NCBI GenBank assembly: GCA_038205755.1
Contig: JBBRBN010000002.1
Coordinates: forward strand, 14,206-78,205
Direction: 5' to 3'
Length of the DNA: 64,000 nucleotides
Source of the DNA: Lysobacterales bacterium
GTDB lineage: Bacteria > Pseudomonadota > Gammaproteobacteria > Xanthomonadales > Xanthomonadaceae
The position numbers and the translations under genes are program-made. Each line of letters opens with the position of its first letter. The stretch's first letter is position 1. Positions 10,130 to 40,051 of the stretch are shown in pieces. Below the pieces are notes generated by a model that ran no database searches, was not told the origin of the DNA, and saw only the letters and a list, made by a program, of their open reading frames with translations.

Positions 10130-10137
10130 GCAGGGCT

Positions 10138-10427: not shown

Positions 10428-10591
10428 ACCCGGATATTTCATGAATCTCACACGCCCTCGCTTGTCTCTTGTCCGCGCAAGGGATTTTCCTCAGTCGGTC
10501 GTATGGCCCGCTACGCCGCTCCTTCGGTAGTCTCCTGTGCGAACAGCATCCTGCGCGATCATCGCGCGAATTCATGAAATATGCGGGCTAA
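10428..10591. mobile_element. MITE-like element copy 2
   Basis: Same TIRs and core as copy 1. Confidence 0.8.
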
Positions 10592-10640
10592 GTCCGACAG
10601 GCTGCCAGCGGCCGTTCGATCCAGATGATCATTCATGGCC

Positions 10641-10862: not shown

Positions 10863-10920
10863 GGTGACCCCCGATGCTTGGTTATAACTGACGTTATACC
10901 GGCCTGGGGATGGGTGCCTT

Positions 10921-11622: not shown

Positions 11623-11676
11623 GTATAGGCGCAGGCCCGGTTCAGACTTTTCGAGTAGACGCTCTAGCGAATTTGA

Positions 11677-11692
11677 GTGAACATATGTTCAC
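11677..11692. promoter_or_regulatory. 16-bp perfect palindrome GTGAACATATGTTCAC in the desT/desC divergent intergenic region: candidate TetR (DesT-like) operator
   Basis: Perfect inverted repeat seen directly. TetR regulators bind palindromes of this length, and a TGAAC-GTTCA core is reminiscent of the DesT operator. Confidence 0.5.
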
Positions 11693-11711
11693 CGTAAATC
11701 AGCAGCTCGCC

Positions 11712-12818: not shown

Positions 12819-12837
12819 ACCCCAGGAGACTGCCCGC

Positions 12838-13920: not shown

Positions 13921-14054
13921 AGGCGACTCCGCACTGTTGCTGCAGTTTCAGCATGAAACTGCGGGAGAAATGCAGCGCTTGGCCGGTGCAAAGCGGCCCG
14001 ATGGCCGTTCAAGCTAGTATTGTCTTCACGCCTTTCCGGTCGGGGGACCAGCCC

Positions 14055-14786: not shown

Positions 14787-14834
14787 GCCAAACCCGGCGC
14801 CTGCCGGTCGCGGCTCCGGCGGCGGTTCGCCGAT

Positions 14835-16340
14835 TCAGCTCGATCCGAGGTCGAACCAGGTCGCCTTGAGCTCGGTGTACTTCTCGAACGCGTGCAGCGA
14901 TTTGTCGCGGCCGTTGCCGGACTGCTTGTAGCCGCCGAACGGCGCCGTCATGTCGCCACCGTCATAGCAGTTGACCCAGACGCTGCCGGCGCGCAGGCGA
15001 CGCGCGGTGTGGTGGGCGCGACTCAGGTCGCGGGTCCAGACGGCGGCGGCCAGTCCGTACGGGCTGTCGTTGGCGATCTGGATGGCCTCGTCGGCGCTGT
15101 CGAATGGAATGGCCGCCAGCACCGGCCCGAAGATCTCCTCACGGGCGATCGTCATGTCGGGTCGCACATGCTCGAACACGGTCGGCTCGATGTAGTAGCC
15201 GCCCGAATCGGCAAGGGCGCGGGCGCCTCCCAGCGACAGCGTCGCACCCTCGCGCTGGCCACTCTCGATATAGCCGAGCACGCGTTCCATCTGCGCTGCG
15301 TCAACGATAGCGCCCATCGGCGTGTCGGGATCCAGCGGATGTCCCGGCTGCATGCGGACGCTGGCGTCGCGGACCAGGGCCATGAAGGTGTCGAAGACTG
15401 GGCGCTCCACCAGTAGCCGCGAGGCCGCGGTGCAGACTTCGCCCTGGTTGTAGAAGATCCCGCTGGCCGCCGCCGCGGCCGCTGCCTCCAGATCCGGTGC
15501 GTCTGCGAACACCAGATTGGGACTTTTGCCACCGCACTCCATATAGGCACGCTTCATGTTGGAGCGCCCGGCACACTGCAGCAGCAGCTTGCCGACCGCC
15601 GTTGAGCCGGTGAAGACCAGACCATCGACGTCCATGTGCAGCGCCAGCGGTTCGCCGGTTTCGGCACCAAAGCCCGGCAGCACATTCAGCACGCCGTCTG
15701 GAAGGCCGGCTTCAATGCCAAGCTCGGCAATGCGCAGGGCGGTCAGCGGCGACTTCTCTGATGGCTTGAGAATCACCGAATTGCCAGTTGCGAGCGCCGG
15801 GGCGATCTTCCAGCTGGCCATCAGCAGCGGAAAATTCCACGGCACGATGGCAGCGACGACACCCAGCGGTTCGCGGGTGATCAGGCCAAGTTCCTGGCGG
15901 CCGGTCGGCGCGACCTCACCGTAAATCTTGTCTACCGCTTCGGCGGTCCAGCGCAGGCAGCGTACTGAGGCCGTCACGTCGACCGCCAGGCTGTCGCGGA
16001 TCGGCTTGCCCATGTCCAGGGTTTCCAGCAGCGCGAGCTCCTCCGCATGCTGTTCGAGCAGTTCGGCGAATCGCAGCAGTACCCGCTTGCGCTGCACCGG
16101 CGACGCCTCCGACCAGCTGCCGGCCTCGAATACCCGCCGCGCTGCGCGGACCGCCCGCTCCACATCTTCGCTGCCACAGCGGGCGATCGGGGCGAGGCGG
16201 GTGCCGTCTATAGGGCTGATGCAGTCGAACGTGCGGCCGTCAACGGCGTCGACGTGGCGACCGTCGATGAACGCCTGGGTGCGCAACGTCAGAGCGCTGG
16301 CGCGGGACTGCCACTCGGCGCGGCTGGGGAAGGTGGCCAT
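14835..16340 (-). CDS. puuC: Aldehyde dehydrogenase, gamma-glutamyl-gamma-aminobutyraldehyde / 4-guanidinobutyraldehyde dehydrogenase (PuuC/KauB-like)
   Basis: 501 aa. ALDH motifs are present: the catalytic Cys in QGEVCTAASR, Glu in MECGGKSP, and NAD binding in GSTAVG. Confidence 0.85.
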   Translation of the reverse strand: MATFPSRAEWQSRASALTLRTQAFIDGRHVDAVDGRTFDCISPIDGTRLAPIARCGSEDVERAVRAARRVFEAGSWSEASPVQRKRVLLRFAELLEQHAEELALLETLDMGKPIRDSLAVDVTASVRCLRWTAEAVDKIYGEVAPTGRQELGLITREPLGVVAAIVPWNFPLLMASWKIAPALATGNSVILKPSEKSPLTALRIAELGIEAGLPDGVLNVLPGFGAETGEPLALHMDVDGLVFTGSTAVGKLLLQCAGRSNMKRAYMECGGKSPNLVFADAPDLEAAAAAAASGIFYNQGEVCTAASRLLVERPVFDTFMALVRDASVRMQPGHPLDPDTPMGAIVDAAQMERVLGYIESGQREGATLSLGGARALADSGGYYIEPTVFEHVRPDMTIAREEIFGPVLAAIPFDSADEAIQIANDSPYGLAAAVWTRDLSRAHHTARRLRAGSVWVNCYDGGDMTAPFGGYKQSGNGRDKSLHAFEKYTELKATWFDLGSS

Positions 16341-23568: not shown

Positions 23569-26136
23569 ATGATCGACTCCCAACTGCTATCTGAGCTTCG
23601 CACAGCGGCGACCCGCCGGCTGCTGCCTGTGCTCGGCCAGGTGATGGAGAAGACCGACGACGCGCTGTTTGACGTTTGGCAGCAGGGCGCCGCCGGCAGC
23701 AGTCAACAGGCGCTGTTTGATGCGCTGCGCGAACTGCGCCGACAGCGCTCGGTGATCGAAGGCGCCGTCGGCGACCGGATCGCCGAAGGCTTCAGTGCGC
23801 TCACCCAGGCGCGACGGCCCCGCGAGGATGAGTTTGCCGATGAGCAGCCCGCCGAACTCGAGCTGGGGCTGCTGGATTCGGACGTGCTTGAGGAGCAATT
23901 GACCTGTGATCGCCTCGCCACGGCGGTCGAGCGTCGGCATGGTGAGGCGCTTGGGCGGCTAGGTCGCGGACTGGCTCAGCTGGTCGGTCAGGCCGAGATC
24001 GCGGCGGCTGATCTGCCGCTCGCGCCGCTCAGGATTGCCCGCGCCTGGCGCGATGCGCTGGCTCCTGTGCTGGAGGCGATCGAATGGCGGCTGGTGGCGC
24101 TCAAACATCTGGAGCGCGGCCTGATCAGTGATCTGGGTGGCGTGGTTGACGAGATGTGCCGACTGCTGCAATCGCGCGGTATCGCGATCGCATTGCCGGT
24201 GCAGCGGCCACGCCGCGCGGCAATGTCGGCCAGCCCGGGACAGGTCCGGCCCGCGCGCGAGGAGGCCGCCTGGGACGAGGGTCATAACCAGGTGCCACCG
24301 CGCGGCGCCAACTCGGAGTTTGGCGCCGAATCGTTTTTCGGTGGCGCATCCATGGGCGGTGGCACTGGTGGAGGAGGAGGCGGCGGTGGTGGTGGCGGTG
24401 GCGGTGGCGGCGGCGAAGGCCCCGATCCGGTCTACGAGGCCATGCGCGAGATGTTCGCCGCCTACTTGGGCAACGTCCGCAACGGCAGCATCAACCCCAA
24501 TCCCGGCGCCGCGGTGGGCAAGCCCGAGCCGGCAGCGCCGCAGACACCCGCCATTGACCCGGCGTCGGCCATTCTGGTGCTCAGCAGGCTGCAGCGACAG
24601 CCGACGCCGGCGCTGCTCGCTGCTGTCGATGATCGCGAGGCCGAGCTCGTGGGACTGCTGCGCAACGAGATCGTGCGCACCGCGGTCGCTCTGGGCCGCG
24701 CTCCGGTCGGCGCGCAGATGGAGCCGCACGACGAGCAGGCGCTGACCATGGTCGGCATGCTGTTCGACACGCTGATGGATCAGGGCCACTTCAGCCGCGA
24801 GGTGCGCGAGCGCCTGGTGCGGCTTTATGTGCCCTACGCCAAGATCGCGCTGCTGGACCGGCGGCTGTTTGCCCACAAGCTGCATCCGGCGCGGCGGCTG
24901 CTCAACCTGCTGGCCGAGGCCTGCGATGGCAACGCGGGCGATGCACCGGCCGAGCGGGAGCTGCTGACCAAGGTCTTCTCGGTCAGCGAACGGCTGATCG
25001 ATGCGTTCGAGGAGGACGTTGCGGTCTTTACCGCAGCCGAGGCCGAGTTCAGCGACTTCCTCAGCCGCCACCGGCGCCGCATCGCACTTGCCGAGCAGCG
25101 TGCCGCCGAGGCCCAGCGCGGCCGCGAGCGTCTCGAGGAAGCGCGGCTGGAGGTGACCCTTGAGCTCGACAGCCTGGTCGGCAAGCGCCAGGTGCCCAAA
25201 CCGATCGGCGAGTTCTTCCGCCGCGATTGGACCCATCACCTGACCATGGTCGCGCTGCGTGACGGGGTTGAATCGGATGCCTTCCGCGACGCCCGCGCGC
25301 CCGGCGTGAAGCTTTGGATGGCGCTGCTCGCCTGCGAGACCGGCAGACTGCCGCCGGTGGATCTGGCCGATCAGCTGCTGCCGGCGCTGCGCAGCTCGGG
25401 ACAAGGCGAAGACGTCGCGCGCGCCAATCTCGCTGATGTGATGGCGGCGCTGCAGACGTCCATTCCAAGGCCACCGGCGCCGACACCGCCGGTACCGAAA
25501 CCGCCGGATGTTCAACCGTTGGCCGATGAGGCACGGCCGGTCCGACCCGCAGCGTCCCCAGTCAGCGCCAGTCCGCGACCGCCGGATCCGTTGGCGGCGA
25601 GACTGCCGACCGGCCCATCCGTCAACGGTCAGGCTTCTGGATCGGTGCCGCCGGTTCGGCCGGCAGCGCCTGCTGGCGCGATTTCACCCGCAGCAGCGGT
25701 GGCGCCGGCAATCGAGCGCGTCGCAGTCGACCCGCCGCCGATATTCGAACTGGTGTCCGCAGCGCCCGAGCCGCCGCCACTGGTCAAGACCTCTGCGGCC
25801 GTGGAGGGCGATATCCGCCTGAATGCCGACACCAGCCTGGCGCTCCCGGAGCTGGTCGAGCAGGTCAAGCAGCTGACGGTCGGGACGTGGGTGGAGTTTG
25901 TCCAGGTCGACGGCTCGATCCAGCCGGCCAAGCTCAGCTGGATCAGCCCAATCTCCTCGCGCATGCTGTTCGTCAACCGCCGCGGTCTGCGCATGTGCAC
26001 GGTGTCGGCCGAAGAGCTGGCCGCCCTGATGGCCGACAACAAGCTTTCCTTGCGAAAAGTGGATGCCGCGTTCGACCGCGCCATGACCCAGGTGCTCGAC
26101 CAGCTGCGCACTGGCGCCGCGCCGGCGCCCACCTGA
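23569..26136 (+). CDS. Large hypothetical protein (possibly DUF1631 family) with internal poly-Gly tract and Pro/Ala-rich linker
   Basis: 855 aa with good GC3 bias. The conserved-looking C-terminus is VGTWVEFVQVDGSIQPAKLSWISPISSRMLFVNRRGLR. The family call is from memory only. Confidence 0.55.
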   Translation: MIDSQLLSELRTAATRRLLPVLGQVMEKTDDALFDVWQQGAAGSSQQALFDALRELRRQRSVIEGAVGDRIAEGFSALTQARRPREDEFADEQPAELELGLLDSDVLEEQLTCDRLATAVERRHGEALGRLGRGLAQLVGQAEIAAADLPLAPLRIARAWRDALAPVLEAIEWRLVALKHLERGLISDLGGVVDEMCRLLQSRGIAIALPVQRPRRAAMSASPGQVRPAREEAAWDEGHNQVPPRGANSEFGAESFFGGASMGGGTGGGGGGGGGGGGGGGGEGPDPVYEAMREMFAAYLGNVRNGSINPNPGAAVGKPEPAAPQTPAIDPASAILVLSRLQRQPTPALLAAVDDREAELVGLLRNEIVRTAVALGRAPVGAQMEPHDEQALTMVGMLFDTLMDQGHFSREVRERLVRLYVPYAKIALLDRRLFAHKLHPARRLLNLLAEACDGNAGDAPAERELLTKVFSVSERLIDAFEEDVAVFTAAEAEFSDFLSRHRRRIALAEQRAAEAQRGRERLEEARLEVTLELDSLVGKRQVPKPIGEFFRRDWTHHLTMVALRDGVESDAFRDARAPGVKLWMALLACETGRLPPVDLADQLLPALRSSGQGEDVARANLADVMAALQTSIPRPPAPTPPVPKPPDVQPLADEARPVRPAASPVSASPRPPDPLAARLPTGPSVNGQASGSVPPVRPAAPAGAISPAAAVAPAIERVAVDPPPIFELVSAAPEPPPLVKTSAAVEGDIRLNADTSLALPELVEQVKQLTVGTWVEFVQVDGSIQPAKLSWISPISSRMLFVNRRGLRMCTVSAEELAALMADNKLSLRKVDAAFDRAMTQVLDQLRTGAAPAPT
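24355..24413 (+). repeat. GGN-codon microsatellite encoding about 20 consecutive glycines inside the 855-aa ORF
   Basis: Seen directly: GGCGGTGGCACTGGTGGAGGAGGAGGCGGCGGTGGTGGTGGCGGTGGCGGTGGCGGCGGC. Confidence 0.8.
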
Positions 26137-26168: not shown

Positions 26169-27000
26169 TCAGTCGGCGCACACCCGGTACGCCTTGAGCA
26201 GCGAGATGCGCCCCGCGCGTGCCATTGCCAGCGCCGCCTGGGTGATCGAGACCATGCCGTCGGCAAGCGCCTGCCGGTGGATCCGGCCGGCCTCGGCGCC
26301 GGGAACGATCAGCCGGCGCAGGGCCGGCGTGACGCTCAACAATTCGTAGACTGCGCTGCGGCGGAACACCCCGCGGCCACCACAGTTGCTGCAGCCACGA
26401 CCGGCGTGGAACACCTCGTCGGGCAACACGCCGAGCACGTCACGGATGTGCGGCGCGACCACCTCGGGCACCTTGCAGTGCTCGCAGGTCAGCCGCACCA
26501 GTCGCTGGGCCATCACCGCCAGCAGGCTTGCCCGCAGAAGAAAGGCCTCGACCCCGAGATCAAGCAGTCGGGTCACGCTGGTGGCAGCAGTGTTGGTGTG
26601 CAGGGTCGATAGCAGCAGATGAGAAGCGTGCAATTGCCAGGCTGATCGCAGCGCTGGGCGCCTGCACCGGCACCACCCGCTGGCGCGACACGAAGTCGAG
26701 CGCCGCCATCGAAGCGGAGTCGGTCGCGCCTTCGATGGCGACCGCCACGCAGCCACGCAGACTGAGCAGGGCAACCGCGCGCAGCCGCCGCGCCGAGGCC
26801 GCCGGCACCAGCTGCAGCGCCTCGCGGGTCGCTTCGATCTGCTGCAGATTGAGCGAGGGCAGGCCGAGGTCGCAGGCCCGTCCGAAAGCGCTGTCGGCGT
26901 TCTCGCCCAGAGTCTCGCGGGCGCCGGACAGATCGATCCGACGGACCGCGGAAAGCCGATCAGGGTCGCCATCGGCGCAGGCGTTGAGCTGGTCGATCAA
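26169..27000 (-). pseudogene. Remnant of a GspE/PilB-family type II secretion / type IV pilus ATPase; the Walker A/B core is missing
   Basis: Frame 26560..27000 encodes a GspE-N-like domain. Frame 26169..about 26640 encodes the His-box and tetracysteine C-terminus (LSTLHTNTAATSV, CEHCK...CSNCGGRG). Total length is about 277 codons against about 500-570 expected, and the frame shifts between the two parts. Confidence 0.5.
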
Positions 27001-29117: not shown

Positions 29118-30076
29118 ACCGCCGCAGGCGGGCGCGCCAGCGGCGCCGTCGCTGGCTGAATCTGGCGGTTTGCGCCGGGCTTGCCCTGGCTGCGTTTCTA
29201 CTCGTTGCATTCACGCGCCCCAGCTGGTTTCTGGAGGTCGAATATGCCCGCCTGCGCTGGCTGGGAGGCGCCAGCGAGACGCTGCTTCAGGTCGGCGACC
29301 ATCGGCTGGAAGTGGTCGAGGCTGGCAGCGGCCGCAACGTGGTGCTGCTGCACGGTTTCACCGGCAGCAAGGAGAACTGGCTGCCGGTGTTCGCCGCACT
29401 TGCGCGGAATTACCGGGTGATTGCCCCGGATCTGCCGGGCTGGGGCGGCAGCGAGCGCAAGGTGGGAGTCAACTACGGATTTGCCGACCAGGCGCCGCGG
29501 GTCGCCGAGTTGCTGCGTCAGCTCAGTCCTGCGGGCGCACCGGCGGTGCTGGTCGGGCACTCGATGGGCGGCGGAATCGCTGCCATGGTCGCGGCCCGCT
29601 ACCCCGATCTGGTCGAGCGTCTGGTGCTGGTGGATGCTGCCGGCGTACGTTTTGCGGACAACGACTTTACTCTCGCTATCGGCCGCGGTGAGCATCCGTT
29701 CGAAGTCAACGACCGGGCGAGCCTCGACCGGCAGCTGGCGCTGGTCTTCGACCACCCGCCGTGGGTGCCATGGCCAGCCGACCAAGCGCTGATCGCCCAG
29801 CGGATCGCCGACCAGCCGTTTGAACGCGAGGTGCTGGATCGCATCGCGCGCCGCGATGAAGCCCTGCAGCCCGGCCTTGAAGCCACCGCCATCGTGGCAC
29901 CCACTCTGCTGCTGTGGTGCCGCAACGACCGGATCGTCGATGTCAGCGGTGCCAGGCTGTATGCCGAGCGCATTCCCGTTACCCGCACGGTGCTGCTCGA
30001 TGGCTGCAACCACATGCCGATGATGGAGCAGCCGCAGGCCACGGCGGACGCCCTGCTGCAGTTCATCGGCGACTGA
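29114..30076 (+). CDS. Alpha/beta-hydrolase fold protein with N-terminal membrane anchor
   Basis: HGFTGS oxyanion region, nucleophile elbow GHSMGG and a C-terminal His. The GTG start overlaps the upstream stop. Confidence 0.75.
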   Translation: MNRRRRARQRRRRWLNLAVCAGLALAAFLLVAFTRPSWFLEVEYARLRWLGGASETLLQVGDHRLEVVEAGSGRNVVLLHGFTGSKENWLPVFAALARNYRVIAPDLPGWGGSERKVGVNYGFADQAPRVAELLRQLSPAGAPAVLVGHSMGGGIAAMVAARYPDLVERLVLVDAAGVRFADNDFTLAIGRGEHPFEVNDRASLDRQLALVFDHPPWVPWPADQALIAQRIADQPFEREVLDRIARRDEALQPGLEATAIVAPTLLLWCRNDRIVDVSGARLYAERIPVTRTVLLDGCNHMPMMEQPQATADALLQFIGD

Positions 30077-30256
30077 GCCGGAGCCCAGGCGCGGACACCA
30101 GCCCGGCGCCGAACGCGTGGCGGCCGCCCCCGCGAGCGTCTAAGCTTCACATCCCGATCATTGGCGGCAGGCGCGGGCCGCAGTCACAGACCGCCTCGGT
30201 CGGCGTCTTTACAAACGTAATCGTCAAGCGCACCGCATCCGGGGAGGATGCTCACG

Positions 30257-30895
30257 ATGGACATGTTCCTGAACATCACGCTGTCGTTTCCCACCGTGAT
30301 CTTCAGCGTTCTGCTGGCGGTGGCGCTGTTCTACTGGCTGCTGGCGATCATCGGGCTGGTCGATCTGGATATTTTCCACATCCACATCGGCCATGGCCCG
30401 GATGTCGATGGCATGGAACTCGGCGGCGTCACGGGGCTGCTGATGAAAGTTGGCCTGGATGGCGTGCCACTTACGTTGATACTCAGTGTGGTGACCCTGC
30501 TGGCGTGGCTGATCAGCTATTTCGCTGGCTTTTTCCTGCTGCAGCATCTGCCTTGGGACGTGTTGCGCTACGGCCTAGGTGCAGGTGCCGCCGTGCTGGC
30601 CGTGGTCATCGCGCTGCCTTTCACTGGCCTGCTGCTGCGGCCGTTCCGCAGTTTGTTCGCCAAGGTCAGGCCGGTTGACAGCGTGTCGCTGCTGAGTGAG
30701 GTCGCTGTGGTGCGCAGTCCGGTGGTAACCCTGGCGCAGGGCAGCGCTGAGGTCAACAACGGCGGCGCCGGGCTGATTCTGCAGGTGCGCGCCGAGCCGG
30801 GCCGATTCGTGCGCGGTGATCGTGTGGTGCTGGTGGAGTACATCGAGTCAACCAACGCCTATCGCGTGATCGCGGAAGGCGGCCCGAAAGAATAG
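30257..30895 (+). CDS. NfeD-like inner-membrane protein (YqiJ/DUF1449-like): N-terminal TM helices plus C-terminal OB-fold
   Basis: There are four or more hydrophobic helices. The C-terminus VVRSPVVTLAQGSAEVNNGGAGLILQVRAEPGRFVRGDRVVLVEYIES resembles an NfeD beta-barrel. GGAGGA lies upstream of the ATG at 30257. Confidence 0.7.
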   Translation: MDMFLNITLSFPTVIFSVLLAVALFYWLLAIIGLVDLDIFHIHIGHGPDVDGMELGGVTGLLMKVGLDGVPLTLILSVVTLLAWLISYFAGFFLLQHLPWDVLRYGLGAGAAVLAVVIALPFTGLLLRPFRSLFAKVRPVDSVSLLSEVAVVRSPVVTLAQGSAEVNNGGAGLILQVRAEPGRFVRGDRVVLVEYIESTNAYRVIAEGGPKE

Positions 30896-30982
30896 TGCAG
30901 GAACAGGTCTGGGTTGTTCGCGGTTGACTGCGACCGCCATTGCAATTGTGGTGACCATTATTTTCGCTCCGGAGTCTTCGTC

Positions 30983-33019
30983 ATGAACACCGCCGTGCTG
31001 CTGCCTGTGCTGATCACGTTCGTCAGCGTCATTGTCGTCATCTTTGGCCTGTTCGGCCTGTTCAAGGCCTTCTACATCAAGGTCCCGCAGGGCACCGCGC
31101 TGATCGTCAACGACATGTCGCCCATGCCCAAGGTGCACTTCACCGGGGCGCTGGTGTATCCGGTGATCTACAAGAAGGAGTTCATGAAGATCTCCCTGAT
31201 CACGCTGGAGGTTGACCGGCGTGGCAAGGACGGGCTGATCTGCAAGGACAACATGCGCGCCGACATCACCGTGGCCTTCTACCTGCGCGTCAACGAGACC
31301 CAGCAGGACGTGCTCAAGGTGGCCAAGGCGATTGGGGTGGATCGGGCGTCCGAGAAGGGCGCGGTGAATGAGCTGTTCAACGCCAAGTTCTCCGAGGCGC
31401 TGAAGACGGTCGGCAAGAAGATCGACTTCGTCAATCTGTTCGAGAACCGGCAGGAGTTCCGCGACCGCATCGTCGAGGTGATTGGCAACGACTTGAATGG
31501 CTACGTGCTTGAAGACGTGGCGATCGACTATCTCGAGCAGACGCCGAAGTCCTCCCTCGATCCGCACAATATTCTGGACGCCGAAGGCATCCGCAAGATC
31601 ACCGAGCTGACCGCCCGGCAGAACGTCATCACCAACGAGCTTGAGCGCAACGAAGAGCTGGCGATCACCAAGAAAAACGTCGAGACCAAGGAAGCGCTGC
31701 TGGCGCTCGCCCGTCAACAGTCCGACGCCGAGGCCAAGCAGCAGCGCGAGATCGCCATCATCCAGGCGCGCGAAACCGCCGAAACCCTGAAGGTCCAGCA
31801 GGAGGAGCGACTGAAGTCCGAGCAGGCGCGCATCTCGGTGCAGGAGCAGCTCGACATCCGCGAGCAGAACCACCAGCGCGAAGTCGAAGTGGCCGATCAG
31901 AACCGCCAGCGTGCGGTGGTCATCGAGGTCGAAAAGGTGACCCGTGCGAAGGCGCTGGAAATCGTCTCGCGCGAGCGCGAAGTAGAGCTGCAGAAGATCG
32001 ACAAGGAGAAGGCGCTGGAAATCCAGCGCAAGGAAATCGCCAACGTGGTGCGCGAGCGCATCGCGGTGGACAAGACGGTGGCGCAGGAGGAGGAGCGCAT
32101 CAAGGAGGTGCGCGAGGTGTCGGAGGCCGACCGCAACAAGCAGGTCGCCATCCTCAATGCGCAGGCGCTGGCCGAGGAAGAGCTGGTGCGCCAGGTCAAG
32201 CAGGCTGAAGCCGACGAGACCAAGTCGCGGCACAAGGCGGTCGAAATCACGGTGACGGCACAGGCCGAGCTGGAGGCCGCCGGCAAGCACGCCGAGGCGA
32301 AGAAGAAGCTCGCCGAGGGCATCGAGGCCGAGCGCGCGGCGCCGGGCCTGGCGGATGCGCGGGTCCGTGAAGTGACGGCGGCAGCGATGGAAAAGGAGGG
32401 GCTGGCCGAAGCCAAGGTGGTTGCCGAAAGACTCGTTGCCGAAGCGCGCGGCGAGCAGGAAAAGGGCTTCGCGCAGGCGCGGGTGATCGAGGCGCAGGCG
32501 GAAGCCAAGCAGAAGGAAGGCCTGGCCGAAGCCAAGGTGCTGGAGGAAAAGCTCGGCGCCCAGGCGCGCGGTGACGCGCATCTGGCCAATGCCAAGGCAT
32601 TGGCGATCCGCGAGGTTGGTTCAGCGGAAGCCAGCATCATGCTGCAGAAGTACGAGGCTGAGGCGCAGGGTCTGGGCAAGAAGTTCGCTGCGCTCGATGA
32701 GCTGAGCGATGGCGCCCGCGCCCACGAAGAGTTCCGCATGCAGCTCGAGAAGAGCTTCGAGCAGGCGATGGCCGGCATCGCGGCAAACAAGGAAATCGCC
32801 CGCGATCAGGCCGACGTGCTGGCCGCCGCACTGTCCAAGGCGAAGGTCGACATCGTTGGCGGCAGCGGCGAGTTCTTCGAGTCGTTCGCCAAGGCGCTGT
32901 CGGTTGGCAAGGCGATCGAAGGGGTAGCCGGCAAGAGCCCGGTGGTGCAGGAGCTGCTGGCGAAGTTCATGGGTGGCAAGCCGGCGGCGTCCGCTGGCAG
33001 TGAGTCGACACCGGAGTAG
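30983..33019 (+). CDS. Flotillin / SPFH (band-7) family protein, YqiK-like, with long C-terminal EA-rich coiled coil
   Basis: 678 aa from MNTAVLL. It has an N-terminal TM segment, an SPFH domain (ALIVNDMS...ADITVAFYLRV) and repeated EAK/ARxxE heptads typical of flotillins. Confidence 0.85.
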   Translation: MNTAVLLPVLITFVSVIVVIFGLFGLFKAFYIKVPQGTALIVNDMSPMPKVHFTGALVYPVIYKKEFMKISLITLEVDRRGKDGLICKDNMRADITVAFYLRVNETQQDVLKVAKAIGVDRASEKGAVNELFNAKFSEALKTVGKKIDFVNLFENRQEFRDRIVEVIGNDLNGYVLEDVAIDYLEQTPKSSLDPHNILDAEGIRKITELTARQNVITNELERNEELAITKKNVETKEALLALARQQSDAEAKQQREIAIIQARETAETLKVQQEERLKSEQARISVQEQLDIREQNHQREVEVADQNRQRAVVIEVEKVTRAKALEIVSREREVELQKIDKEKALEIQRKEIANVVRERIAVDKTVAQEEERIKEVREVSEADRNKQVAILNAQALAEEELVRQVKQAEADETKSRHKAVEITVTAQAELEAAGKHAEAKKKLAEGIEAERAAPGLADARVREVTAAAMEKEGLAEAKVVAERLVAEARGEQEKGFAQARVIEAQAEAKQKEGLAEAKVLEEKLGAQARGDAHLANAKALAIREVGSAEASIMLQKYEAEAQGLGKKFAALDELSDGARAHEEFRMQLEKSFEQAMAGIAANKEIARDQADVLAAALSKAKVDIVGGSGEFFESFAKALSVGKAIEGVAGKSPVVQELLAKFMGGKPAASAGSESTPE

Positions 33020-33021
33020 TT

Positions 33022-33038
33022 GCGGTGTTGAACCGCAG
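33022..33038 (+). terminator. Short hairpin TGCGGT-gttga-ACCGCA right after the flotillin stop
   Basis: Seen directly. It is a weak 6-bp stem. Confidence 0.25.
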
Positions 33039-33197
33039 AGCTGGGAGCTGGGGGCTGGGGGCTGGGGTGCAAGCCCCGGCGCTTCCGCCGCGCCGGCTTT
33101 GCCACGTCCGGCCGCGCCGAGCCCGCTCGCTGGTCGCAAACTCGCCGCAGTCCGCGCAGCCTGCGCCCCATCCCCCAGTCCCCAGCCCCCAGTCCCG
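33039..33197. repeat. G-rich arm (GAGCTGGGAGCTGGGGGCTGGGGGCTGGGG) and complementary C-rich arm (CCCCATCCCCCAGTCCCCAGCCCCCAGTCCC) separated by about 98 bp: a long imperfect inverted repeat and potential G-quadruplex motif
   Basis: Seen directly between the flotillin gene and the 1745-aa ORF. Four G-runs of 3 or more on the plus strand, and the same on the minus strand at the other arm. Confidence 0.7.
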
Positions 33198-33232
33198 CTC
33201 TATCCACACGCAAGCCTGCGGCCGACCTCCCC

Positions 33233-36200
33233 ATGTCTGACCCCACCCAGCAAACCGACCAGGCCGTCGCCGAGGGCGGCGCCTATGAGGTGCTGCGCAA
33301 GCGGCTGATCGAGCAGGGCGGGCGGCTGCGCGGCATTGCCGAATCGCTCAACGTGCAGCGTCTGGCCGAGTTCGGCAGCAGCCAGATGGCGGCGATCGGG
33401 CGGCTCCGGGTGCGCACCGAAAACAATTGCGTGCCGCGCGATCTGGTGCAGGTCGGGGACTGCCTGCTGTTTGGCTACAACGTGTTCATCGGTCTCAAGC
33501 GTGAGACCCAGATCGAAGACGTGTTTTCGCTGTATCGGCTGGTCGAGGGCGCTGAGGGCTACGACGTCGAGCCAGTGCCGCTGGCCGGCAGTTTTCTTGC
33601 CGCCGACAGCTTTGCGCAGGACTTCCGCGAGCTGTACGCGTATTACAAGAACACCCGTCTGCTGCAGCTGGTGCGGCGCGACGGCGCCCTGCTGGCGGCG
33701 TTCCAGATTGGCGAGCGGATCACCGACATGCGGGTGTTCCGCTGGAGCGTGGCGCCCGACGGGCAGATCCGCTACGTCGACAACCGCGGCGAGCGCGACA
33801 TCGCGCTGCCGCCGGCGTACGACTTCGAGTGGACCCGGGCCAACCGCGAGCACTTGGTCGAGGGGCGCTTCCCGCACCTCAACATCCTCGATCAGGTGTT
33901 CGTCGAGACGATCGGCGGCGACCTGACGATCAAGATCGAGAACAACACCGGGGATGGACTGGGCATCTACCGCGAGGCGGTGGTCGATCAGACCCAGTCG
34001 CTGGACGACGCCAAGGTCGACTTCGCCCGCGTCGGCAGTCTGGTGCTGCTGCGCATCCAGCCCTACCGCGAAGAGCAGTGGCGCTATCTGGCCTTCAACA
34101 CGCTGACCCGCACGGTGCTGCGGATCGACGCCATCGGCCAGGCCTGCGTCCAGCTGCCGGAAGATCACGGCATCGTTTTTCCCGGCGGCTACCTGCTGCA
34201 GAACGGCGAGTACAAGACCTTCGAGCGGCCGATGGCCGGCATGCGCTTCAAGCGGGCGCTGCGTTCGCCCAACGGCGAGGACGTGCTGTACGTCTTCTAC
34301 GAGCCAGAGGAGGGCCGTAGCGCGCTGTTCACCTACAACCTGATCGAGCGCCGCCTGCAGACGCCAATCTTTGGCCACGGCCATGCCCGGCTCGAAGATG
34401 GCCGCATGGTGATCTTCAGCGCCGAGAGCAGCGAGCCGACCCGGGTGCATCCGATGCAGGTCTGGCAGACGCCGTTCTACAGCGATGTGCACGCCGCCAA
34501 CCGGCCAACCGGGACCAGCTTCATGGGCCGGATTGGCAATGCCGAGCTGGTCCGCGGCGTGTCCGATCTGCTCTCCCTGAGCCGCGAGATCGACGCCGAG
34601 CAGGTGTCGATGCAGCGCTATGAACAGCTCGCGCACAGCGCCCGCCGACTGTTCGACCTGCACCACTGGTTGGCCGATGCCAATGTGCCCGACATTGCGC
34701 CGCTGCTGCGCGATATCGCGGCCAGCGGCGAGGCGGTGCTGGACGAGTTCGAGAAAGTGGAAGGTATCCGCCGACAGTCGTCGCGAGCCTTGGGTGAGGC
34801 GCAGACCCGCCAGCGAGAGCTGCTCGAGCAATCGCATCCAGACCGCTTCGAGCGCGTCGAAGACCATGTGGCCGCGCTGAACGCGCTGACCACCCAGCGC
34901 GGCCATCTGCTGACCATCCGCGACTACCGCTACATCGATGTCGCGCTGATTGACGCGCTGGAAGTCGACGTGCAGGCCGCACACGCGCGGGTCTCACAGG
35001 CCACCGGCGCATTCCTCGCCGGCGACCGCGCCCTGCAGCCCCTGAACGAGCAGCTGCGCGCGCTCGACGCCAAGGCCCAGACCGCGGTCGGCGTCAGTCA
35101 GCTGGCCGAGCCGTTGGCGCAGATGGCGGCAATGGCGGCCAATCTCGACATGCTGGCGACCCTGATGGCCGGTCTGCAGATCGATGATGCGGCGCAGCGC
35201 ACGCGGATCGTGGAGGCGATTTCGGAGCTGTACGCGCGGCTCAACCAGGCGCGTGCGCGCGGCGAGCAGCGCCGCAAGGCGCTGGGATCGAGCGAGGCGA
35301 TCGCGCAATTCGGCGCCCAGTTCACCCTGTTTGGTCAGAGCCTCACCGCGGCGCTCGGCTTGGCCACCGATCCGGAGCGGTGCGACGAGCAGCTGTCGCG
35401 CATCCTGGTCCAGCTGGAGACGCTGGAGAGCCAGTTCGGCGAGCACGAGCAGTTTCTGGGCGACATCCAGACCAAGCGCGAGGAGCTGCTGGAGGCGTTT
35501 GAGGCGCACAAGCAGGCGCTGCTGGACGAGCGTCAGCGCAAGGCGCAGGCGGTGCAGGATGCTGCCCAGCGCATTCTCGGCGGCTTTGCCCGGCGCACCG
35601 CGCGGCTGGCCAGCAGCGACGAGCTGAATGCGTTCTTTGCCGGCGACCCGCTGATCCTCAAGCTGCGCGAGCTGATCGGCCGCCTGCGGGCGCTCAACGA
35701 CAGCGTCAAGGCGGATGCCATCGAGGCGCGCCTGAAGGGCGCCCGCGATCAGGCAGTGCGCGCGCTGCGCGACAAGACCGAGCTGTTCGAGGGCGACGGC
35801 AGCGTCATCAAGCTCGGCCCGCGGCACCGCTTCAGCGTCAACACGCAGGAGCTCGACCTTACCCTGATGGCGCGTGGCGACACGCTGTGCCTGCACCTCA
35901 CCGGCACCGACTACCTCGAGCCGCTGCAGCGTCCCGAACTGGAAGCGCTGCGCGACTACTGGTCGGTCAGTCTGGAGTCCGAATCCGAGCGTCTGTCGCG
36001 CGCCGAGTATCTGGCGGCGGCGCTGCTGGAGTCGGCGCAGGCGGGCCAAGACGGACTCAGCATCGACCGGCTGCGCCATCAGCTGGGTGAGCCCGATGCA
36101 CTGAACCGGACGCTGCGCGAGTTTGCCGCACCGCGCTATCGCGACGGCTATGAGAAAGGCATCCATGACCACGATGCCGCGCTGATCCTGCGCCACTGGC

Positions 36201-38470
36201 TGCCGCTGCGCGACAGCGCCGGCACGCTTACCCATGCACCGCAGGCGCGCGCCTGGGCGGTGATTGCCTGGTCGCAGCTGCAGAGCGGCATGGACGCGGC
36301 GCTGTGGCCGCAGCGTGCGCGGCAGGCGCGGCAGATGCGCGAGCTGCTCGGCAGCGCGGTGGGCCAGACCGCGCTGGCCCGCGAGATCACCGACCAGCTC
36401 CTGGCCTTCGCCAAATCCAACGCACTGCCGGAGCTGGTTCCGAGTGCGGCGGCGGCCGCCGCCTATCTGGTCGACGAACTGTCCGCCGAGCACCCGCAGT
36501 TCGTTTTCAGCAAGTACGCCCGCGAGCTGGCGACGCGTCTGCGGCAGCAGCTGGACGGCGGCCATCGATGGGCCGAGTTGCAAACCACGCTGGAGCACCT
36601 GGGCGGCCGACTGGCGGCGCGCTGGGCGCTGCTGACGCAGTGGCTGCAGGCCTTGCAGTCCGATGACGGGAGTGACGCGGCGCTCGCCGACTATCTGCCC
36701 GAGGCGGTCGCGCTGCTGCTGGTCGACCAGAGTATTCCGTCGCGCGTCAGCGAGGTCGATCTGCAGGTCCGCATCGAAGGGTTGCTCGGTCAGCATGGGC
36801 GGATCGCCGCTGGCGCAATGACGCTTGGCGTCGATGAGTTCCAACAGCGTCTGGATGGCCATCGGCAGGTTTTCCTGCCGGGCCTGCGGCGCTTCCACGC
36901 CCTGCGCCATGAAATCGCCAGCGAGGCGCGCCACGCGCTGCGGCTGGAGGAGTTCAAGCCGCGTCCGCTCAGCTCGTTTGTCCGCAACAAGCTCATCAAC
37001 GACGTCTACCTGCCGATCATTGGCGATAACCTGGCCAAGCAGATGGGCACGGTGGGCGAAGGTCGACGCTCCGACCTGATGGGCCTGCTGATGCTGATCT
37101 CGCCGCCGGGCTACGGCAAGACCACGCTGATGGAGTACGTGGCGCACCGGCTGGGGTTGATCTTCATGAAGATCAACGGCCCCGCGCTCGGCCACGAGGT
37201 GCGCTCGCTGGACCCGGCGCAGGCGCCGGATGCCACCTCGCGGCAGGAGCTTGAAAAGCTCAACCTGGCGCTGGAAATGGGCAACAACGTGATGCTGTAT
37301 GTCGACGACATCCAGCACACCCATCCGGAGTTCCTGCAGAAATTCATCTCGCTGTGCGACGGCACCCGTCGCATTGAGGGCGTCTGGCGCGGCCGCACGC
37401 GCACCTACGACATGCGCGGCAAAAAGTTCTGCGTGGTGATGGCCGGCAACCCGTATACCGAGTCGGGTGCGGTGTTCCGCATTCCCGACATGCTGGCCAA
37501 CCGCGCCGACGTCTACAACCTCGGCGACGTGCTGGGCGGCATGCAGGCGTCGTTCCTGCTCAGCTACATCGAAAATGCCATGACCTCCAACCCGGTGCTG
37601 GCGCCGCTCGCCACCCGCGAGATGAAGGACCTGTACCTGCTGGTCGAGAAGGCGCAGGGCCGCGATTTCAGCGCCAACAGCCTCAGCCACAGCTACAGCG
37701 GCGCGGAGATCAACGAGATTGTCGGCGTGCTGCAGCGGATCATGCAGGCCCGCGACCTGGTGTTCCGGGTCAACCAGCAGTACATCGCCAGCGCCGCTCA
37801 GGCCGATGCCTACCGCAGCGAGCCGCCGTTCCGGCTGCAGGGCAGCTATCGCAACATGAACAAGCTGGCCGAGAAGATCACCGCGGTGATGAACGCCGCC
37901 GAGCTGTCGCAGCTGCTGCACGACCATTACATCGGCGAGTCGCAGCTGCTCACCACCGGGGCGGAGGAGAACCTGCTCAAGCTCGGCGAACTGCGCGGCA
38001 GCCACACGCCCGAGCAGGCCGAACGCTGGGCCCAGATCAAGCGCGACTTCGCCCGCAACAAATCGATCGGCGGCGCCGATGCCGATACCGGCACGCGGGT
38101 CGTCGCCCAGTTGCGCGACCTGGTCGAAGGCGTGCAGGCGCTGCGCGCGGCGGCCGTCGAGTCGGCCGCTGCACCGGCCGTCGAGTCGGCCGCTGCACCG
38201 GCCGCCGACACCCAACCCGCAGCGCACTGGGACGCGCTGATCGACCTGCTGCAGCGCATCGCCAGCGAGCAGGCCCTGGCCCGCACCTTCAGCCGCGACA
38301 GCGCGAGCGACAGCGCGATGTGGCTGGGTGGCCTGCGCAATGCCCTCGAACTCGGCTTCCGTCCGCTGGTGAAAGGCATGGACAAACGCGCCGAGCAGCA
38401 CGATGCGCTACAGGTCATCTTGCGCGAAATCGCACGCCGTATACCGCCCCCGGACCCGCCGCAATCGTAG
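33233..38470 (+). CDS. Giant (1745 aa) uncharacterised protein. About 450 aa N-terminal beta-rich region, about 800 aa alpha-helical/coiled-coil region, a MoxR/AAA_5-type P-loop ATPase domain (about aa 1270-1500) and a 250-aa C-terminal tail
   Basis: Walker A LISPPGYGKTT (nt about 37100-37125), Walker B NVMLYVDDIQH (about 37290-37320) and sensor VVMAGNPYTESG (about 37440). Strong GC3 bias on this strand. The antisense ORFs are Arg/Ala/Gly low-complexity. Confidence 0.8.
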   Translation: MSDPTQQTDQAVAEGGAYEVLRKRLIEQGGRLRGIAESLNVQRLAEFGSSQMAAIGRLRVRTENNCVPRDLVQVGDCLLFGYNVFIGLKRETQIEDVFSLYRLVEGAEGYDVEPVPLAGSFLAADSFAQDFRELYAYYKNTRLLQLVRRDGALLAAFQIGERITDMRVFRWSVAPDGQIRYVDNRGERDIALPPAYDFEWTRANREHLVEGRFPHLNILDQVFVETIGGDLTIKIENNTGDGLGIYREAVVDQTQSLDDAKVDFARVGSLVLLRIQPYREEQWRYLAFNTLTRTVLRIDAIGQACVQLPEDHGIVFPGGYLLQNGEYKTFERPMAGMRFKRALRSPNGEDVLYVFYEPEEGRSALFTYNLIERRLQTPIFGHGHARLEDGRMVIFSAESSEPTRVHPMQVWQTPFYSDVHAANRPTGTSFMGRIGNAELVRGVSDLLSLSREIDAEQVSMQRYEQLAHSARRLFDLHHWLADANVPDIAPLLRDIAASGEAVLDEFEKVEGIRRQSSRALGEAQTRQRELLEQSHPDRFERVEDHVAALNALTTQRGHLLTIRDYRYIDVALIDALEVDVQAAHARVSQATGAFLAGDRALQPLNEQLRALDAKAQTAVGVSQLAEPLAQMAAMAANLDMLATLMAGLQIDDAAQRTRIVEAISELYARLNQARARGEQRRKALGSSEAIAQFGAQFTLFGQSLTAALGLATDPERCDEQLSRILVQLETLESQFGEHEQFLGDIQTKREELLEAFEAHKQALLDERQRKAQAVQDAAQRILGGFARRTARLASSDELNAFFAGDPLILKLRELIGRLRALNDSVKADAIEARLKGARDQAVRALRDKTELFEGDGSVIKLGPRHRFSVNTQELDLTLMARGDTLCLHLTGTDYLEPLQRPELEALRDYWSVSLESESERLSRAEYLAAALLESAQAGQDGLSIDRLRHQLGEPDALNRTLREFAAPRYRDGYEKGIHDHDAALILRHWLPLRDSAGTLTHAPQARAWAVIAWSQLQSGMDAALWPQRARQARQMRELLGSAVGQTALAREITDQLLAFAKSNALPELVPSAAAAAAYLVDELSAEHPQFVFSKYARELATRLRQQLDGGHRWAELQTTLEHLGGRLAARWALLTQWLQALQSDDGSDAALADYLPEAVALLLVDQSIPSRVSEVDLQVRIEGLLGQHGRIAAGAMTLGVDEFQQRLDGHRQVFLPGLRRFHALRHEIASEARHALRLEEFKPRPLSSFVRNKLINDVYLPIIGDNLAKQMGTVGEGRRSDLMGLLMLISPPGYGKTTLMEYVAHRLGLIFMKINGPALGHEVRSLDPAQAPDATSRQELEKLNLALEMGNNVMLYVDDIQHTHPEFLQKFISLCDGTRRIEGVWRGRTRTYDMRGKKFCVVMAGNPYTESGAVFRIPDMLANRADVYNLGDVLGGMQASFLLSYIENAMTSNPVLAPLATREMKDLYLLVEKAQGRDFSANSLSHSYSGAEINEIVGVLQRIMQARDLVFRVNQQYIASAAQADAYRSEPPFRLQGSYRNMNKLAEKITAVMNAAELSQLLHDHYIGESQLLTTGAEENLLKLGELRGSHTPEQAERWAQIKRDFARNKSIGGADADTGTRVVAQLRDLVEGVQALRAAAVESAAAPAVESAAAPAADTQPAAHWDALIDLLQRIASEQALARTFSRDSASDSAMWLGGLRNALELGFRPLVKGMDKRAEQHDALQVILREIARRIPPPDPPQS
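38153..38200 (+). repeat. Perfect 24-nt tandem duplication (GCCGTCGAGTCGGCCGCTGCACCG x2), encoding AVESAAAP twice, within the giant ORF
   Basis: Seen directly. Confidence 0.85.
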
Positions 38471-38734: not shown

Positions 38735-40051
38735 CTACCTCGGCGGCTGCGCAGCTGCATCGCGGGGCGGTGGGGCGCTCTGCGCTGGCGTCGGCGGTCG
38801 ACCGTCGCCGCCGCCAGCCAGCACGATGCGGGCACCGCGCTGGTAGGTCCAATAGGCCCAGGTCCAGTTCAACAACACGGCCAGGCGATTGCGGAAGCCG
38901 ATCAGGAAGAACACGTGCGCGGTCAGCCAGAACCACCAGGCCAGCACGCCGCTGAGCTGCAGCCGGCCGAAGTGGACCACGGCAGCCATCCGGCCAATCG
39001 TGGCCAGATTGCCGAAGTCGCGGTAGCGGAACGCTGGGCTCGGTCGGCCGGCGAGCCGGTGGCGAATACTGGCCGCTACGTGTTTGCCCATCTGCTTCGC
39101 GGCGGGTGCGACGCCGGGCACTGGGCGGCCGTCCTGTTCGACGGCGGCCAGATCGCCGATCACGAACACCTCCGGGTGATCAACGAGCGACAGGCTGGCA
39201 TCGACCCGCACGCGACCCGCGCGATCACGCTCTGCCGGCAGCCAGTGGCCGAGCGGCGAGGCGGCGACGCCGGCCGCCCACAGCACGGTGCGCGCGTACT
39301 CGAAGCGCTCCTGGCAGCGGTAGCCGTCCGCGTTGATCTCGCTGACTGCGGCATTGGTTACCACGTCAACGCCGAGCCGCTGCAGTTGGCGGCAAGCGCT
39401 GTCAGACAGTGCCGCCGGAAAACTCCCAAGAATGCGCGGCGCCGCCTCGATCAGCCGCACTCGGGCACGGGTCGGATCGATCCGGCGAAATTCGCTGCGC
39501 AGGGTGTGGCGGGCAATCTCGGCCAGAGTGCCGGCCAGCTCGACGCCAGTCGGGCCGCCGCCGACGATGGCGAAGTGCAGCCAGGCGTCGCGCTCAGCGG
39601 GATCGTCACTCGCCTCGGCGCGCTCGAACGCGCACAGCAGCCGGCGTCGGATGTGCAGGGCATCGTCCAGTGTTTTCAGGCCGGGCGCATGGGCGGCCCA
39701 GTGGTCGTTGCCGAAGTAGGCATGGGTGGCGCCGCTGGCGACCACCAGGACGTCGTACGCAAGGCGCCCGCCATCGGCCAACAGCAGGCTGCGGCCCGCC
39801 ACATCGATAGTGGTGACGTCGGCAAGTCGCACGGTCACATTCGCCTGCCCGCGCAGAATGTGCCGCAGCGGTGCGGCGATGTCCGGCGCCGACAGGCCGG
39901 CCGTGGCCACCTGATAGAGCAGCGGCTGGAACAAGTGATGATTGCTGCGATCCACCAGCGTAATGCGGACCTTGGCCGACGCCAGACCGCGGGTGGTCCA
40001 CAGTCCGCCGAAGCCGCCGCCGATCACCACCACATGCGGTTGTGTGTGCAT
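38735..40051 (-). CDS. ndh: Type II NADH dehydrogenase (NDH-2), FAD/NAD(P)-binding oxidoreductase
   Basis: N-terminus HVVVIGGGFGGL, second Rossmann motif AIVGGGPTGVELAG and C-terminal membrane-anchoring helices. Confidence 0.85.
   Translation of the reverse strand: MHTQPHVVVIGGGFGGLWTTRGLASAKVRITLVDRSNHHLFQPLLYQVATAGLSAPDIAAPLRHILRGQANVTVRLADVTTIDVAGRSLLLADGGRLAYDVLVVASGATHAYFGNDHWAAHAPGLKTLDDALHIRRRLLCAFERAEASDDPAERDAWLHFAIVGGGPTGVELAGTLAEIARHTLRSEFRRIDPTRARVRLIEAAPRILGSFPAALSDSACRQLQRLGVDVVTNAAVSEINADGYRCQERFEYARTVLWAAGVAASPLGHWLPAERDRAGRVRVDASLSLVDHPEVFVIGDLAAVEQDGRPVPGVAPAAKQMGKHVAASIRHRLAGRPSPAFRYRDFGNLATIGRMAAVVHFGRLQLSGVLAWWFWLTAHVFFLIGFRNRLAVLLNWTWAYWTYQRGARIVLAGGGDGRPPTPAQSAPPPRDAAAQPPR

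Follow-up and report, generated by a model that had tools for sequence, protein, structure and literature searches.

A stand-alone bacC-bacD-bacE-type locus of a Lysobacterales bacterium combines a divergent YqiJ-flotillin pair with a giant AAA+ ATPase

In a 64,000-nucleotide stretch of the genome of a Lysobacterales bacterium (contig JBBRBN010000002.1, positions 14,206 to 78,205 of the forward strand; this whole stretch is called the window below), three genes follow each other at positions 30257-38470. The first gene (30257-30895, plus strand) encodes a YqiJ/NfeD-like inner-membrane protein of 212 amino acids (aa), and the second (30983-33019, plus strand) a divergent flotillin of the SPFH type with 678 aa. 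The third gene (33233-38470, plus strand), which lies beyond a 213-bp intergenic spacer (33020-33232), encodes a soluble AAA+ ATPase of 1745 aa. All three were present in our check of the open reading frames (ORFs) of the window, co-oriented as the original prediction had presented them. Besides the ORFs themselves, the assignments drew on a Shine-Dalgarno sequence and identity to BacC of Pseudomonas aeruginosa for the first gene, on homology to BacD and to Escherichia coli YqiK for the second, and on Pfam matches and identity to P. aeruginosa PA3728 for the third; the spacer was defined by its RNA fold and an inverted repeat, and has no strand. The locus is almost certainly a stand-alone bacC-bacD-bacE set and, as such, the "abbreviated" version lacking PspA of a phage-shock-associated flotillin operon that also occurs in Pseudomonas and numerous other bacteria.

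The ORF of the bacC-type gene spans 30248-30895 and has in-frame ATG codons at 30248 and 30257. A GGAGG sequence at 30243-30247 is placed 9 nt before the ATG at 30257, and the ATG at 30248 sits within that Shine-Dalgarno sequence. By this spacing, the start at 30257 that had been proposed originally was preferred over 30248. The 212-aa protein has about four hydrophobic segments, starting at residues 5, 24, 64, and 104 of the 215-aa ORF, and its C-terminal part is a soluble beta-rich segment. It is 48% identical to P. aeruginosa BacC (PA3730) over the full length (1e-52). With E. coli YqiJ it aligned weakly (8e-6, 22% identity, residues 48-213), and the two proteins have a common layout of transmembrane (TM) segments followed by a C-terminal domain. 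A profile of the YqiJ-like proteins from 65 loci of the survey described below matched the 212-aa protein at 2.8e-67. No Pfam model (including YqiJ_N, PF21001, and YqiJ_OB, PF07290) or NCBIfam model matched it, even at E<10, whereas both YqiJ_N and YqiJ_OB matched the E. coli YqiJ used as a control.

The bacD-type protein of 678 aa, identical to database protein P0124, consists of one N-terminal TM segment, an SPFH domain (about residues 30-200), and a long coiled coil, and its C-terminal region is rich in Ala and Glu. It is 77% identical to P. aeruginosa BacD (PA3729). Alignment with E. coli YqiK was obtained both by BLASTP (2e-36, 28% identity over residues 10-459, covering the TM segment, the SPFH domain, and the coiled coil) and by hhalign (probability 99.7%, E 3.6e-27). 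The protein had no Pfam (including Band_7, PF01145, and Flot, PF15975) or NCBIfam match even at E<10, unlike the control, E. coli YqiK, which matched Flot at 6e-41 and Band_7 at 2e-18. P. aeruginosa BacD and BacC likewise had no Pfam match. Because direct alignment succeeds while the Pfam models that match YqiK and YqiJ give nothing, the identification of the first two genes as YqiJ and YqiK relatives, made at the outset, holds, and their products therefore appear from these comparisons to be a divergent subfamily that current Pfam models miss. The gene pair is homologous to E. coli YqiJ-YqiK and to Bacillus subtilis YuaF(NfeD2)-FloT, with a small polytopic gene followed by a TM-SPFH-coiled-coil gene in each case. 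The E. coli pair, unlike the three genes of the window, is not followed by an ATPase gene but by sibD/ibsD. When the 678-aa protein was modelled with AlphaFold2 (AF2) from 24 homologs of about 80% identity, helices were predicted at residues 200-402 and 460-619; the SPFH part came out unfolded, with predicted local distance difference test (pLDDT) values of 30-40, and was unusable for a fold search. A profile of the flotillin alignment found no match among PDB sequences.

The bacE-type protein of 1745 aa is identical to NCBI protein P0001, has no TM-like segment that we could find, and shares 67% identity with P. aeruginosa PA3728 (P0047) across 100% of the length. The original prediction could not place it in any family, which the searches overturned, as it is a clear member of the DUF3686 family that NCBI names "DNA repair ATPase". 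The family-defining DUF3686 domain (PF12458, named "ATPase involved in DNA repair" in Pfam) matched at 2.4e-201 over residues 32-478 (33326-34666, plus strand), corresponding to profile positions 2-448 of 448. A DUF7902 domain (PF25472) matched at 7e-24 over residues 600-682 (35030-35278, plus strand), in a helical middle region of about 730 residues, and AAA_5 and AAA matches at residues 1286-1409 were weaker but above the Pfam threshold. The family is named, but it is not functionally characterised. Clustering at 90% identity divides it into more than 6000 clusters and clustering at 50% into 903, mostly of about 1600-1900 aa, and the P. aeruginosa BacE cluster holds 3222 member sequences. 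Every motif quoted for the protein beforehand was found in the sequence: LISPPGYGKTT (with K1296), MLYVDDIQH (D1358/D1359), and VVMAGNP (N1406), as well as YVFYEPEEGRSALFTYN and MVIFSAESSEP. The motifs PPGYGKTT, DDIQH, GNPYTExG, and QGSYRNM are invariant in the family, as are Walker A, Walker B, sensor-1, and a conserved Arg.

In P. aeruginosa, the corresponding locus (L001) has the order DUF2170, PspA, 213 aa, 688 aa, 1746 aa, PLD. PA3728 stands directly after PA3732 (DUF2170), PA3731 (PspA), PA3730, and PA3729, with bacC and bacD at L001 7108-9851, and before the PLD gene. On sequence identity (48%, 77%, and 67%), and with the same order and orientation, the three window genes are orthologous to PA3730, PA3729, and PA3728 of the bacABCDEF operon (PA3732-PA3727 / PA14_16140-16200). 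The P. aeruginosa bac cluster had been named in the original prediction, correctly so, since the ATPase ortholog PA3728 lies directly downstream of PA3729. The full bacABCDEF operon, also described as the CesT-Tir-PspA operon, is not in the window: bacA (DUF2170, CesT/Tir-like), bacB (PspA), and bacF (PLD) are absent from the 64 kb, and an M1-peptidase/hydrolase gene pair is found upstream of the trio instead.

The operon has been described before, contrary to the initial view of an uncharacterised and undescribed system. In the definition of Macé et al. (2008), bac comprised PA3729-3732, and PA3728 went unmentioned. In 2024, the same group extended it to bacABCDEF, in which bacE is the ATPase and bacF the PLD gene; products of reverse transcription PCR (RT-PCR) spanned every junction, including bacD-bacE, in P. 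aeruginosa PA14, BacB to BacF were raised 6- to 13-fold in a bacA mutant, and the authors stated that there are no functional data for the Bac proteins (PMC10948618). Ravi et al. (mSystems 2024; PMC11237479) derived the operon from comparative genomics, including the abbreviated form that lacks PspA, which they found widely distributed and possibly working with PspA encoded elsewhere. They proposed a role in membrane dynamics and a chaperone-like role, and drew an analogy with Vps4/ESCRT-III. Their abbreviated operon, consisting of a band-7/flotillin, a YqiJ/YuaF TM protein, and a novel AAA+ ATPase, is identical to the window locus in architecture and gene content. The bac operon of P. aeruginosa has effects on biofilm formation and virulence. 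Infection with two virulent phages upregulates PA3728-PA3732, osmotic shock induces PspA/PA3731, and PA3728 is among the genes recurrently mutated in cystic fibrosis isolates.

The conservation of the gene order was examined by scanning species-representative genomes once, the seed being an alignment of 20 distant family members that share 28-56% identity with the window protein. The loci counted were the best-scoring 80 of 581 confirmed matches, not a random sample, yet phylogenetically broad, and the P. aeruginosa locus was also included. Those taken as informative for the flotillin gene (n=71) had 2.4 kb or more of upstream DNA. A flotillin-like gene was found upstream of the ATPase gene in 70 of these 71 loci, on the same strand and with a gap below 1 kb in 67 of the 70. 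The gap between the two genes had a median of 85 bp and a range of -4 to 2032 bp, and several pairs overlapped by 1-4 bp, which suggests translational coupling. A YqiJ-like gene preceded the flotillin gene in 64 of the 68 informative loci. The loci came from Gamma-, Beta-, and Zetaproteobacteria, Myxococcota and other former Deltaproteobacteria, Actinomycetota, Verrucomicrobiota, Planctomycetota, Acidobacteriota, Bacteroidota, and a member of the Clostridiaceae. The flotillin-ATPase pair, usually with a YqiJ-like gene, is thus kept in order and orientation in at least nine phyla. Since 70 of 71 informative loci of other organisms repeat the gene order, the trio in the window is not a chance arrangement. 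Synteny of the giant ATPase homologs with flotillin genes had been named as the check on which a true co-oriented module would stand or fall, and the hypothesis came through it across phyla.

The genes around the module were not conserved to a similar extent. All-against-all clustering of 4227 flanking ORFs revealed only lineage-specific clusters and no further neighbour conserved across phyla, and in two close relatives the trio was flanked by unrelated genes on the opposite strand. A PLD gene followed the ATPase gene in eight loci. An ORF of about 188 aa on the plus strand was observed to start at or overlap the ATPase stop codon in five gammaproteobacterial loci (L010, L016, L023, L040, and L049), in two of which (L023 and L040) it lay between the ATPase and PLD genes; this ORF family possibly adds a component specific to some lineages. 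Of genes related to DNA repair, only recJ was seen in the neighbourhoods, a few genes downstream and solely in five Pseudomonas-group loci (L001 16642-18357).

Several loci departed from the common arrangement. The largest gaps between the flotillin and ATPase genes (2032 bp in L024, 1469 bp in L044, and 1406 bp in L074) leave room for an inserted gene. The sole informative locus without a flotillin gene was L051, in which small unrelated ORFs precede the ATPase gene, and this may reflect a relocated gene or an assembly artefact. A two-gene variant was observed in Streptomyces, in which the flotillin-like gene immediately precedes the ATPase gene; other Actinomycetota (Nocardiopsis, Nonomuraea, and Actinomadura) have the complete trio.

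A PspA gene was found just upstream of the trio in 25 of the 81 loci. In Gammaproteobacteria it was accompanied by a DUF2170 gene, and in four Bacteroidota loci (L057, L065, L070, and L075) it occurred without DUF2170. In Marinobacter and Cellvibrionaceae (L034, L042, and L053) the PspA-DUF2170 dyad was on the opposite strand. Therefore, the link to PspA recurs in different arrangements.

The flotillins linked to the ATPase were also related to each other. Those of seven distant phyla scored 200-250 bits against the SPFH domain of the window protein, and only 85-120 bits against E. coli YqiK. Because they are closer to the window SPFH domain than to YqiK, although E. coli is the nearer organism, the linked flotillins form a distinct and ancient clade that has been inherited jointly with the ATPase. 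The Band_7, Flot, YqiJ_N, and YqiJ_OB models miss both linked proteins, and neighbourhood surveys based on these domains will therefore undercount the module.

For the BacE family, there was no solved relative by sequence beyond the P-loop region. A cross-phylum profile of the DUF3686 domain found no match in the PDB, and a search of PDB sequences with the whole protein gave matches at the level of the P-loop only. Ravi et al. (PMC11237479) described the N-terminal region of the ATPase as beta-propeller repeats; comparison of the DUF3686 profile with itself for propeller blades revealed no internal repeats.

Residues 1130-1745 were modelled with AF2 from 89 homologs with a mutual identity below 78%, and the mean pLDDT of the model was 83.8. 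A single AAA+ module (about residues 1253-1522; 36989-37798, plus strand) was predicted, with one alpha/beta core that holds beta1, the P-loop with K1296, the Walker B residues D1358/D1359, sensor-1 N1406, and the conserved R1424. A beta-hairpin is placed between alpha3 and beta4, at the pre-sensor-1 position (about residues 1380-1393; model residues 251-264). Only a loop and a 4-residue helix lie between beta2 and alpha2, so that the model shows no clear helix-2 insert. The core is followed by a helical lid and then by a long helical tail of about 220 residues. BacE is accordingly described here as a soluble protein with intact nucleotide-binding motifs and a predicted ring-type AAA+ fold.

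When the AAA+ model was compared by Foldseek, RuvB, CbbQ, Skd3, and NorQ were all found near 1e-5 and were undifferentiated. The closest solved folds to the module were the ring-forming MoxR remodelers NorQ and CbbQ. With the Walker-A-proximal sequence alone, the nearest proteins were the classical AAA proteins NVL, Rix7, and p97. The combination of a full-length PF00004 core, an aromatic pore loop 1, and a second region of homology, which defines the classical clade (Vps4, p97, NSF), was not found in BacE; the aromatic pore-loop motif is absent between Walker A and Walker B, where GPALGHEV stands. As far as the model tells, a MoxR/AAA_5-like module in a distinct lineage is the best-supported placement. 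This agrees with the "MoxR/AAA_5-type" call made before the searches, given that NorQ and CbbQ are the closest folds and that Pfam AAA_5 passes its cut-off. The lineage is distinct because BacE shares only 12-15% identity with MoxR ATPases (NorQ, CbbQ, RavA, and the related AAA_5 modules of midasin and dynein), has DD in Walker B, and has neither an aromatic pore loop nor a VWA/MIDAS partner in its neighbourhoods. Unlike MoxR proteins, which have about 300 aa and the helix-2 insert that the model does not clearly show, it carries a 1250-residue N-terminal extension made of DUF3686, DUF7902, and helices.

The spacer between the flotillin and ATPase genes (33020-33232) was confirmed to be structured, as had been noticed at first sight. 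Its predicted RNA fold has a free energy of -116 kcal/mol (z = -4.1). This strong fold is caused by a long imperfect palindrome, in which (GCTGGGG)n at 33040-33067 pairs with its complement at 33166-33196; the arms of the inverted repeat are 20 nt long, 95% complementary, and 105 nt apart. No other copy of the palindrome motif was found in the 64 kb, and Rfam gave no match in the spacer. The gap of 213 bp compares with 149 bp in P. aeruginosa. Two close relatives have unrelated REP-like palindromes at the same position (L083, 5850-5965; L084, 5915-5975), one of which is the familiar GTAGGAGCCAGCTTGCTGGCGA-type REP sequence. A conserved regulatory RNA was rejected, since the palindromes of the close relatives are unrelated and Rfam is empty. 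A strong terminator in the spacer would have spoken against a shared module; no T-tract or terminator-like site was found in 33020-33232. The palindrome is probably a REP-like extragenic palindrome, neither a conserved regulatory element nor a canonical terminator, and the site seems to collect such palindromes. REP-like extragenic palindromes can stabilise the upstream mRNA and reduce expression of the downstream gene. The palindromes in the spacer might thereby set the ratio of flotillin to ATPase expression, which would be fitting if many copies of the scaffold but few of the enzyme are required.

The surroundings of the trio in the window are as follows. Upstream, on the same strand, the M1-peptidase and alpha/beta-hydrolase gene pair ends at 30076, and a spacer of 172 bp precedes the bacC-type gene. 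On the downstream side, an NDH-2 gene (38735-40051, minus strand) converges on the trio. The G+C content is 62-70%, and the closest named relatives of the ATPase and flotillin proteins are from Pseudomarimonas, Lysobacter, and Aquimonas (Lysobacterales). A search for sigma-54 sites found none in the 172-bp upstream spacer. A lone match to the sigma-54 consensus with one mismatch, TGGCACCCACTCTGCT, was observed at 29895-29910 (plus strand), inside the 3' end of the hydrolase gene and 347 bp before the bacC-like start. It is no evidence of a promoter and is probably meaningless, because sigma-54-like matches in the whole window (28, against 37.6 expected) were below chance. A few kb upstream of the trio, an 855-aa protein encoded at 23569-26136 (plus strand) matched DUF1631, an uncharacterised family, over the full length (6e-137). 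In a 267-aa ORF at 26169-26972 (minus strand), the T2SSE profile (GspE/PilB/PilT-type secretion ATPase) was matched only at positions 235-365 of 370, its C-terminal third, and the ORF could be a truncated gene or have a mis-called start.

How the three proteins would work together can be proposed as follows. BacD, anchored by its N-terminal TM helix, would oligomerise through its SPFH domain and coiled coil, and together with the polytopic BacC it would build a ring or cage of the flotillin type at the cytoplasmic side of the inner membrane. BacE would form a ring through its AAA+ module, most likely a hexamer, and would dock on the BacD/BacC scaffold through the N-terminal DUF3686 domain and the long helical arm. 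Under membrane stress, BacE would then use ATP hydrolysis to build up, reshape, or take apart this scaffold and, where PspA is present, its polymers as well. By analogy with Vps4 acting on ESCRT-III, or MoxR proteins acting on their partners, we infer that BacE may be an energy-dependent regulator of a membrane microdomain. The likeness to Vps4/ESCRT-III is a functional analogy only, in that an AAA+ ATPase is encoded with membrane-remodelling polymers and PspA adjoins the trio in some of the loci. This mechanism of ATP-driven scaffold remodelling could, in our estimate, equally turn out right or wrong. The combined statement, of the bacCDE identity together with remodelling by BacE, we consider somewhat better than evenly supported.

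A number of points weigh against this interpretation. The substrate of BacE, its oligomeric state, and its contact with BacD or BacC are all things that we infer. Formation of a cage by BacD is argued from other SPFH proteins, and the SPFH part of the AF2 model was unfolded. The Walker B motif reads DD, not DE, and there is no aromatic pore loop, which makes polypeptide threading in the manner of Vps4 doubtful. MoxR proteins usually need a VWA/MIDAS partner; no VWA match was found in the three proteins, and no further conserved neighbour was found around them. In the 64-kb window, no homologs of PspA, DUF2170, or PLD were found with profiles built from 21-25 loci. Read-through in this organism could also be reduced by the large hairpin that the spacer forms. 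Among the loci compared, the one in a metagenome-assembled genome of the Cytophagaceae (L051, ATPase at 9986-14850) has no flotillin- or YqiJ-like gene within 10 kb upstream, and the Streptomyces loci (L058, L067, and L071) have no YqiJ-like gene or obvious polytopic membrane ORF.

The substrate can be narrowed in different ways. That BacE is a dedicated assembly/disassembly motor for a specialised flotillin cage, acting on BacD/BacC and not on PspA, is a tentative proposal that we put well short of an even chance. PspA and Vipp1 are the bacterial ESCRT-III proteins. A Vps4-like role in which PspA is the substrate of BacE, the flotillin and the YqiJ-like protein serve only as a membrane platform, and PspA is encoded elsewhere in this genome, would account for the PspA gene that immediately precedes the trio in 25 of 81 loci, from two unrelated phyla. 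The Bac proteins are co-regulated with PspA/BacB in P. aeruginosa (PMC10948618), and the SPFH protein YdjI of B. subtilis is described as recruiting PspA to the membrane. We regard this role as rather unlikely, and less so than the alternatives below.

The fold of the AAA+ module bears on another explanation, in which BacE, as a chaperone of the MoxR type, would help some membrane client (a respiratory or transport complex, for example) to mature and the flotillin cage would be the assembly chamber, comparable to NorQ/NorD, CbbQ/CbbO, and RavA/ViaA. NorQ and CbbQ being the closest solved folds, with Pfam AAA_5 above its cut-off, is consistent with such a chaperone; moreover, SPFH proteins are widely seen as assembly scaffolds, and Ravi et al. 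proposed a chaperone-like role (PMC11237479). The neighbourhoods, however, contained neither a VWA/MIDAS partner nor a recurrent client gene. The flanking genes differ in every lineage, and the NDH-2 gene of the window is convergent with the trio and lacks conservation across the other loci. A client chaperone is improbable in our judgement.

A possible defence role had been raised in the original prediction, and is not supported by our results. Anti-phage defence or abortive infection, with a membrane sensor coupled to a large ATPase effector, would fit the induction of the P. aeruginosa orthologs by two virulent phages, and large ATPases are common in defence systems. Induction by phages is, however, equally expected of a phage-shock response to membrane stress. 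NCBIfam and PADLOC scans of the three proteins gave nothing significant, and no PADLOC-DB 2.0 model matched them significantly; the weak PADLOC matches were to LmuB (2e-4, 18.6 bits, residues 548-876), which is probably a helical or coiled-coil resemblance, and to IetA (9e-3, at the P-loop). The searches detected neither a nuclease, protease, TIR, or Sir2 domain nor any other effector domain. The gene seems to be core and not island-borne, as the 3222 sequences of the P. aeruginosa cluster indicate, and the architecture is steadily conserved across phyla. Taken together, a defence system is very unlikely. That BacE is a DNA-repair ATPase, as it has been named, with an incidental flotillin neighbour, is hardly credible: beyond the Pfam and NCBI names themselves, weak matches to RuvB in the Walker A region, and recJ downstream in Pseudomonas, the RuvB similarity covers about 40 residues at the P-loop and reaches 16-17.5 bits in NCBIfam against cut-offs of 282-299, no DNA-binding or other repair domain was detected with Pfam, the invariant neighbours are membrane proteins, recJ is confined to the five Pseudomonas-group loci, and our literature search found no paper that mentions DUF3686/PF12458 or backs a repair role, so that the name is unsupported by the searched literature and by the domain content.

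The locus adds no new kind of system, and the question of what the 1745-aa ATPase does to the flotillin scaffold has already been posed in the literature. It shows the minimal three-gene form in isolation. What is added here to the account of Ravi et al. (PMC11237479) is the synteny in 70 of 71 informative loci, the separate flotillin clade that escapes Pfam, the MoxR-like fold, and the two-gene variant of Streptomyces. For experiments on BacE, it should be useful that the repair name is unsupported, that Pfam misses the linked proteins, and that the AAA+ module is predicted to be MoxR-like.

In both bacteria and eukaryotes, the assembly, opening, and recycling of SPFH/flotillin scaffolds are still poorly understood. 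To the best of our knowledge, no dedicated energy-consuming regulator of these scaffolds is known. BacE is an obvious candidate for such a regulator, because nearly all genomes that encode it link it to one flotillin clade and because it is co-expressed with the membrane-repair protein PspA in P. aeruginosa. If BacE does act on BacD/BacC, it would be the first example known of an energy-dependent regulator for an SPFH membrane microdomain, and the two or three genes would represent an ancient, self-sufficient machine present in at least nine phyla.

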